Assembly: GCF_003019035.1 (NCBI RefSeq)
Contig: NZ_CP027448.1
DNA: 64,000 nucleotides
Reading direction: 5' to 3' (one strand)
From: Escherichia coli
GTDB taxonomy: Bacteria > Pseudomonadota > Gammaproteobacteria > Enterobacterales > Enterobacteriaceae
Under the pieces are notes generated by a model. It was given only the letters and a program-made list of their open reading frames with translations, searched no databases and was not told where the DNA came from. This document shows, piece after piece, positions 25,061-25,901 of the stretch. A program made the translations under genes and the position numbers. How positions within the stretch are numbered: position 1 is the stretch's first letter; each line of letters opens with the position of its first letter.

Positions 25061-25396
25061 ATGGAAACGGATATTGATGAGCGAATTAGTGAGTTTCTGG
25101 AAAATCAGAAAAAACATTTCAGTAAAACACTCTTTAGTACCCGTGAAATAGCCGATGCTGTCGGGCTAACGATATATCAGGCCAGAGGATGTCTGGAAGT
25201 TTCACCGTCCTTATCTGTACAGGAGCAATACTGTCCGGCAGCGTGCTCAGGCTGTCCTGGAACATTACCAGTTTGCACGGACACAGCCGGAACCGGTAAG
25301 GCGTTATCTGCAGGTTTATCGGGAGACTCCGCTGGTCACTACAGAAGGGCGTGGCGGAGAACAGCTATCTGTAACCTGTACCCCTTGTGGGTTTGA
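25061..25396 (+). pseudogene. PapI/FaeA-like regulator N-terminus with unrelated C-terminus (probable gene remnant)
   Basis: Residues about 8-50 (ERISEFLEN...TREIADAVGLTIYQARGCLE) resemble the PapI-family winged helix; the rest has no resemblance. Confidence 0.35.
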
Positions 25397-25901
25397 CCGT
25401 GAAGGCGAACTGATGCTGGTTCTGTATTGTGACGGTACGCCTGTTATCCGGATATCGTTTTCATTCATTCGCTGGCGGGGAAGTTTCACTTTGTTTATTG
25501 GTGGCTTGCAGGGGCCTCGGGAATACGGGGCACATACAATTCGTCACACCACTCGCGTTTGTCACGGCCTCTTTCCGCGCAGGGTGCTGTGTGAGGCCGT
25601 TGCTGCGCTGGCGGAGGTGTGCCGGCTGTATACCATCACTGCGGTCAGTGAAGAGCAGCATGTTTTGCGACACGGTAGGTATGCGGCGCGTAAACAGGGG
25701 CGGTTTGTGGCGCATTATAGTGAGTGTTGGATATCTGTAGGAGGACAACACGATGGCAACGGTTTTTACCAATTGCCAGTGCCTTTACCACGTAAAGGTT
25801 CGGAAGATATCCCAGTCCGCAAGCGGGCGGAATACCGCAGACGGAATGCGCTGCTGGACAGTATCCGTTTAGGTGTCAGGGCTGCTATGGGCATTCAGTG
25901 A
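25170..25901 (+). pseudogene. VirK-like (DUF535-family) protein, 5'-truncated
   Basis: Frame is open from 25170 and contains the block ...FIRWRGSFTLFIGGLQGPREYG... that I recall as a VirK signature; first in-frame ATG only at 25413. Confidence 0.5.

Follow-up and report, generated by a model that had tools for sequence, protein, structure and literature searches.

Positions 25061-25901 of the window, by which we mean the whole 64,000-nucleotide stretch of Escherichia coli DNA analysed here, are very probably a deletion scar: the remnant of a four-gene cluster reduced by ordinary gene decay to two nonfunctional pseudogene fragments. The upstream fragment is the 5' part of a PefI/FaeA/PapI-family regulator gene and the downstream fragment is the 3' part of virK, which encodes a DUF535 protein of the VirK/YbjX family. 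The anatomy of the scar, its breakpoint, the genes missing from it, its spread and the extra lesions of its relatives are read directly from the compared sequences. A single illegitimate event, most simply an intramolecular deletion of ~2.43 kb without microhomology, would have joined base 140 of the regulator gene to approximately base 272 of virK, out of frame. The first fragment is now a chimeric open reading frame (ORF) for 111 residues; its upstream region and ribosome-binding site are the native ones, so that transcription and translation probably continue. The second is the body of virK, which has lost its promoter-proximal context, its canonical start and its first ~90 residues. Both fragments are expected to be unable to serve their original function, and the plasmid has presumably lost the envelope modification due to the cluster.

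The window closely matches plasmid p3RM8082 (NZ_CP043827.1, IncF) of E. coli RM8082, a strain from cattle faeces in California. It is 99.9% identical to the window over 24700-26100 and 100% identical over 24900-26000; there is a 4-nt coordinate shift near window position 16600, so the match is not exact over the full length. Its annotation was converted by taking window position as 101325 minus record position. Intact clusters were provided by plasmid pRKI3099b (L003), the RM8082 chromosome (L004; NZ_CP043825.1, 3304262-3316941) and plasmid pRHB33-C08_2 (L005). The contig L010, derived from SRR21291506, encodes the intact VirK protein P0002 (323 amino acids), and L009 was a further reference. 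The Pfam cut-offs were 20.7 bits for FaeA (PF04703) and 27 bits for DUF535 (PF04393).

A blunt junction and a missing 2.43-kb segment

The same four genes follow one another in the same orientation in L003, L004 and L005: a faeA-like regulator gene, a polysaccharide deacetylase gene (shf-like), a GT4 glycosyltransferase gene (capU-like) and virK. In all three loci shf follows the regulator gene after 50-100 bp and virK follows it after ~2.4 kb; what stands upstream of the regulator gene differs, being hlyD, a Pef/Afr-type operon or another fimbrial cluster. Blastn alignment places window 25057-25200 on L003 2430-2573 (82% identity) and window 25201-25874 on L003 5001-5674 (89%). The counterparts are 3426-3572 and 6001-6680 in L004, and 5826-6158 and 8586-9238 in L005, and the matches of L009 and L010 to the window begin exactly at 25201. 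The switch in homology, common to the five references, defines a blunt deletion junction at 25200/25201, with breakpoints at 2573/5001 in L003, 3572/6001 in L004 and ~6160/8586 in L005, and with homology from 5513 in L009 and from 986 in L010. The missing segment measures 2425-2428 bp and takes in the last ~22 regulator codons, all of shf and capU, and the first ~90 codons of virK (90 in P0002 numbering, 95 in the longer L003 annotation). No shf homologue, GT4 gene or second DUF535 gene was found by tblastn anywhere in the 64-kb window. Both flanking genes are truncated at one breakpoint and the intervening genes are gone, as in a deletion-derived pseudogene pair.

An earlier note on this DNA, made from the letters alone, had proposed a recombination scar, and the single breakpoint against five references upholds that proposal. 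The note had also described the remains of a fimbrial regulator joined to virK. The 5' remnant of a regulator gene is indeed there, but its partner is not a stranger: the two halves are the first and fourth genes of one cluster in the intact relatives, and the event is therefore an internal deletion of ~2.43 kb in which shf and capU were lost too. The possibility left open there, that correcting a single sequencing error would reveal an intact VirK frame, is excluded because ~2.43 kb is absent, so that no single-base correction restores virK. The lack of any DUF535 hit, which would also have spoken against the note, is excluded by the strong DUF535 match.

No bases are shared at the breakpoint in any of the five references, which argues for illegitimate recombination and leaves slippage or short-homology recombination unsupported. 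Programmed frameshifting, by which ribosomes would pass from the regulator frame to that of virK, was considered as well, but no slippery motif is evident in the junction sequence. Homology to L003-L005 ends at ~25874-25880, which at first hinted at a second junction at the 3' end of virK. Such a junction was ruled out by P0002, which has the same C terminus (...GVRAAIGIQ) and is 90% identical, and by L010, where window 25201-26112 aligns with 986-1897 at 92.5% identity, gap-free, through the virK stop, the spacer (128 nt in both) and the start of the PAPS-reductase gene. Since this match runs without a gap through the stop into the next gene, a single event suffices. The virK 3' end and the downstream PAPS-reductase-like gene (26029-27255, plus strand; Pfam DUF3440 and PAPS_reduct), which concerns us here as context only, are thus ancestral for this allele.

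Complete plasmids from the USA, the UK and Switzerland, three in all, are 100% identical across the junction, and the exact 111-residue chimera is encoded on 138 contigs of the public collection (NCBI, ENA and Logan). The junction thus exists and has been inherited. That it arose in assembly or sequencing, which would make the scar illusory, is refuted by this recurrence in three independently sequenced complete plasmids and on so many contigs. Some carriers of the scar have decayed further. P0144 has a frameshift early in the regulator part, at about codon 16; P0122 and P0126 have a frameshift in the virK part; and P0001 and L002 have a 24-bp in-frame deletion in the virK part. Such extra lesions fit neutral decay.

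The stretch around window 25684-25707 (virK codons RYAARKQG/ARKQGRFV) is a recurrent hotspot for 24-bp in-frame insertion or deletion. L002 and P0001 on the one hand and the intact L005 virK on the other each lack 8 codons near the same place, beside an imperfect short direct repeat.

Two gene fragments and their annotation

The regulator fragment (25061-25200, plus strand) consists of codons 1-46 plus 2 nt, where intact copies have 68-70 codons, and is 82-90% identical by blastn to the faeA-like genes of L003, L004 and L005, whose leading genes of this family measure 56-70 codons. In the ORF that it opens (25061-25396, plus strand), residues 22-46 match Pfam FaeA with an E value of 1.1e-5 and 26 bits over profile positions 13-37 of 62. 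The score is above the gathering cut-off and bears out the PapI/FaeA-like segment that had been noticed at the start of this ORF; a complete winged helix, with three helices and a beta-hairpin wing over ~62 positions, is not present. The chimera has 47 regulator residues, then 64 from virK DNA read in the wrong frame, and stops at a TGA at 25394-25396. Missing from it are the last part of helix 3 and the entire wing, which PefI and the intact homologues have in common as a conserved element. The intact homologues cover the FaeA profile from 3 (L004) or 16 (L005) to 61 with ~56 bits, and their alignment with PefI (PDB 2jt1; E = 5.7e-12) is end to end, over residues 2-70, whereas PapI (2htj) matches more weakly. 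The alignment of the window sequence with the intact homologues and PefI stops at residue 47, and its product would not be expected to do the original job. The picture of a PapI-like fimbrial leftover needs amending: the intact gene goes with the shf-capU-virK module and not with the adjoining F4-like fimbrial operon, and among solved structures its best relative is PefI, not PapI. NCBIfam gave no match for any scar piece or intact homologue.

Upstream of the fragment, 24867-25060 (plus strand) is 88% identical to L005 5826-6026, the segment that immediately precedes the intact faeA-like gene of pRHB33-C08_2. Five nt ahead of the ATG at 25061 comes a GAGG (25052-25055) that resembles a Shine-Dalgarno sequence. 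Because these 194 bp are conserved and the motif is in place, expression of the chimera is plausible. A promoter and terminator scan gave one weak sigma-70-like match at 25013-25041, no more than chance gives, and nothing convincing of either kind around the fragment. No Pap-type GATC pair occurs in the 350 bp upstream, which contain a single GATC at 24810. No PhoP box of the form (T/G)GTTTA-N5-(T/G)GTTTA with up to 3 mismatches was found in 24712-25301, consensus scans being weak evidence, and an Rfam scan of both strands of 24500-26200 found no family.

The virK fragment (25201-25901, plus strand) corresponds to codons ~91-323 followed by the stop, and has its natural 3' end. Its reading frame, counted from 25062, contains no stop from 25170 until the one at 25899-25901, and it matches DUF535 with an E value of 1.9e-64 and 218 bits over profile positions 47-279 of 281; intact P0002 spans 4-279. 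Residues 90-323 of P0002 align to the window at 89.7% identity (tblastn). The VirK/DUF535-like frame that the earlier note had placed from 25170 is therefore sound as an open frame and as a family assignment, but virK-derived DNA starts only at 25201, and 25170-25200 is regulator DNA that chances to be open in the virK frame. The absence of an in-frame start before 25413 was correctly seen, since the first ATG, GTG or TTG is found there. The longest ORF with a canonical start in this frame (25413-25901, plus strand, 162 amino acids) covers DUF535 positions 124-279 of 281, and no single ORF with a usable start in the window contains the full-length domain. Among the checks suggested at the time, profile searches for DUF535 and the PapI family gave two scores above the Pfam cut-offs, and an alignment to intact virK gave a missing N terminus of ~90 codons.

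RefSeq places a coding sequence for a 241-residue "VirK/YbjX family protein" (WP_264721252.1) at 25176-25901 on the plus strand. This coding sequence opens with ATC, and 8 codons at its beginning come from the regulator gene, in a wrong frame. On p3RM8082, RefSeq labels the part corresponding to window 25061-25165 a pseudogene ("hypothetical protein, missing C-terminus") and treats the virK remnant as an intact protein, and other pipelines call versions of 154-243 amino acids. WP_264721252.1 and its cluster mates (P0001) are truncated chimeric calls for which a pseudogene label is due.

Intact P0002 was modelled with AlphaFold from an alignment of 70 sequences, with a predicted local distance difference test (pLDDT) value of 87.7 and a predicted template-modelling (TM) score of 0.86. 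Over residues 21-90 the model shows helices with high confidence (block means 82-95), and it is therefore folded structure that has been lost, not a disordered tail. Foldseek searches with the model returned weak GNAT-type matches (TM 0.3-0.48), among them NatD (4u9w; E = 1e-4, TM 0.31/0.46), and a sequence search of the PDB with intact VirK gave no match. A GNAT-like fold has also been predicted for Shigella VirK and for YbjX (PMC12562796).

Alternative readings of the region

Several observations weigh against reading the region as a decayed scar, and most of them concern virK. The remnant frame is still uninterrupted over 243 codons, with neither a nonsense codon nor a frameshift in the window, it keeps the GNAT-like core and the invariant GGLQGP motif, and NCBI's Prokaryotic Genome Annotation Pipeline (PGAP) calls it a protein. 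Its ratio of nonsynonymous to synonymous substitution rates (dN/dS) against intact virK is 0.12-0.16, within the range of intact genes compared with each other (0.07-0.24), and such low values may be compatible with residual function. A truncated VirK would then still be made and work, by re-initiation at the ATG at 25413 or by initiation at the ATC at 25176. A GAAGG at 25401-25405 lies 7 nt ahead of the ATG, which is itself 16 nt past the chimera stop, and could allow re-initiation; this arrangement is the main reason why we still grant residual VirK activity a small chance. We nevertheless consider it unlikely. The 90 N-terminal residues, with their confidently predicted helices, are gone, and the 162-residue version would start at strand 161-167 of the predicted fold and so would be without helices 102-126 and two core strands as well. 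As a start codon ATC serves very poorly, and the one at 25176 has no evident ribosome-binding site and stands in foreign, out-of-frame DNA. Relatives of the scar carry a frameshift or the 8-codon deletion in the virK part. The low dN/dS is accounted for by history before the deletion: most of the divergence would predate it, and the deletion would be recent relative to the divergence of the alleles. Relaxed selection on the remnant was considered as well and set aside, the ratio being the same as for intact pairs, and the comparison of the window with L002, with only 2 substitutions, having no power.

Rather than an inert by-product, the 111-residue chimera might be a working, perhaps dominant-negative, PefI/FaeA-type regulator of the adjoining F4-like fimbrial operon. 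It retains the native upstream region, the GAGG and the ATG, helices 1 to most of 3 are kept, the identical chimera recurs on the 138 contigs, and tblastn found no other FaeA-like gene in the window. We hold this to be highly improbable, as the end of helix 3 and the conserved wing are replaced by the 64 out-of-frame residues, one lineage (P0144) is frameshifted at about codon 16, and the spread of one plasmid lineage accounts for the 138 identical copies. The 350 bp upstream are without a GATC pair, and a pair 100 bp apart that does occur 5' of the fimbrial operon, at 16511/16611, lies in IS110 debris without Pap-type boxes. It is very unlikely, too, that the PefI-like half is expressed as a helix-only protein that interferes with Lrp/PapI-type control of the F4-like fimbriae, with the PefI-type leader of the intact loci coupling fimbrial phase to envelope modification.

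Two unrelated modules could in principle have been joined, a regulator gene left behind by the F4-like operon and a virK of other origin. The regulator fragment stands directly downstream of faeI, and there are fimbrial operons with a pefI-type gene at their 3' side. A direct ancestor of the scar was not found, and the two halves have different nearest relatives, L005 for the regulator half (90%) and L010 for the virK half (92.5%), so that the junction may stem from two cluster copies; this counts against a simple internal deletion as well. A union of unrelated modules can, however, be given very little credence. The three intact loci keep the regulator gene ahead of shf and virK in the same order and orientation, one of them beside hlyD with no fimbrial operon, and the homology to L005 begins 194 bp upstream of the regulator gene and stops short of the fimbrial genes.

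Neighbourhood of the scar and comparison with known systems

The F4 (K88)-like operon upstream of the scar extends over 17567-24707 and consists of faeC-like, faeD, faeE and faeF genes, a divergent major-subunit-like ORF, faeH and faeI. It has no faeJ; tblastn detected no faeA in the window, and neither faeA nor faeB is annotated upstream. Its 5' side is debris of an IS110-family insertion sequence (IS). A 397-nt inverted repeat (15454-15850 and 27924-28320, 99% identical), made of 5' fragments of IS110-family transposase genes, brackets the F4-like operon, the scar and the PAPS-reductase/ParB-like pair, and direct repeats of ~110 nt (15343-15453 and 28695-28801, 85-93%) lie just outside it. 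These repeats suggest a possible IS-mediated inversion or rearrangement of a ~12-kb segment. Farther away, the regions at ~32.7-41.3 kb and ~61.5-64 kb contain, according to the p3RM8082 annotation, colicin B and M with immunity genes, an "anti-phage transmembrane ATPase", a truncated CfaE/CblD tip-adhesin gene and a lutABC-type lactate-utilisation cluster. The earlier note had described virK as a companion of autotransporter genes on other plasmids. That association does not apply here: no autotransporter is annotated in the p3RM8082 stretches that cover window ~6775-64000, and the remnant is only ~45% identical to the studied VirK, the protein annotated "virulence factor VirK" on plasmids of Shigella and enteroaggregative E. 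coli (EAEC).

The intact clusters have varied surroundings. In L005 the cluster is preceded by a chaperone-usher fimbrial operon, and ~2.5 kb beyond virK, with two genes in between, comes a PAPS-reductase gene, so that the gene order matches that of the window. The RM8082 chromosome holds another full-length copy of the cluster, at 3310202-3313509 of NZ_CP043825.1, with two tandem FaeA/PapI-family genes, a frameshifted deacetylase (shf) gene, a GT4 gene, virK and a helix-turn-helix regulator gene, and this copy adjoins a fimbrial cluster and pagP. The PAPS-reductase/DUF3440 gene of the window overlaps a ParB-N/IbrB-like gene (26029-27881), and such an IbrA/IbrB-like pair follows shf-capU-virK-type modules, either at once or after a few genes, in several unrelated plasmids: L005, L010 and L008, the last a locus of the Salmonella plasmid pCFSAN058565. 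In L008 (1303-2835), afaD is followed by a deacetylase gene, a ~230-bp 5' glycosyltransferase remnant (recognised by eye only) and a PAPS-reductase gene, and the last 70 bp before the latter match window 25961-26028; to all appearance the module suffered a separate deletion there. The PefI-like leader gene was not detected by tblastn in pO157, L008 or L009. A literature search for a link between VirK and FaeA, PefI or PapI returned only noise, and no paper describing the leader gene was found.

The biological weight of the scar is small, as accessory clusters on IncF plasmids decay routinely in this way. The blunt 25200/25201 junction is a convenient lineage marker for a group of plasmids with F4-like fimbriae in livestock-associated E. 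coli. The scar also draws attention to a little-noticed variant of the shf-capU-virK cluster that has a PefI-like leader and decays by independent deletions in different plasmids.

Each half of the scar has well-described relatives. PefI, which is homologous to PapI, acts as a repressor of pef, and K88 fimbriae have in FaeA a local regulator that works together with Lrp (PMC12388093). The window fragment scores above the Pfam cut-off for this family, yet it represents residues 1-47 only, and in the intact loci the constant neighbours of the gene are shf, capU and virK, with no one fimbrial operon tied to it. Membership of the VirK/YbjX family is indicated by the strong DUF535 match and by the GNAT-like fold predicted for the intact homologue, but the window copy, without profile positions 1-46 (~90 residues) and without a canonical start, is a fragment. 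The first two genes of the pO157 ecf operon (ecf1-ecf4), encoding a deacetylase and a GT4 glycosyltransferase, are homologous to the genes deleted from the window. The third ecf gene, in contrast, encodes a CptA-type phosphoethanolamine transferase instead of VirK, and the operon has no FaeA-like leader.

The ancestral cluster is a divergent relative of the shf-rfbU(capU)-virK(-msbB2) locus of Shigella pINV and EAEC pAA plasmids such as pAA2, which is regulated by PhoP and contributes to envelope integrity (PMC7355660, PMC12562796). The deacetylase, GT4 and DUF535 genes come in the same order in both, and both are plasmid-borne and located beside adhesin genes. The differences are considerable. 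Identity is low, at ~45% for the protein encoded by the virK remnant and ~66-67% for shf DNA, and the window itself has lost shf, capU and the virK 5' end. The ancestral cluster had in addition a PefI/FaeA-like gene in front, and behind virK the place of msbB2/lpxM is taken by the PAPS-reductase/ParB-like pair.
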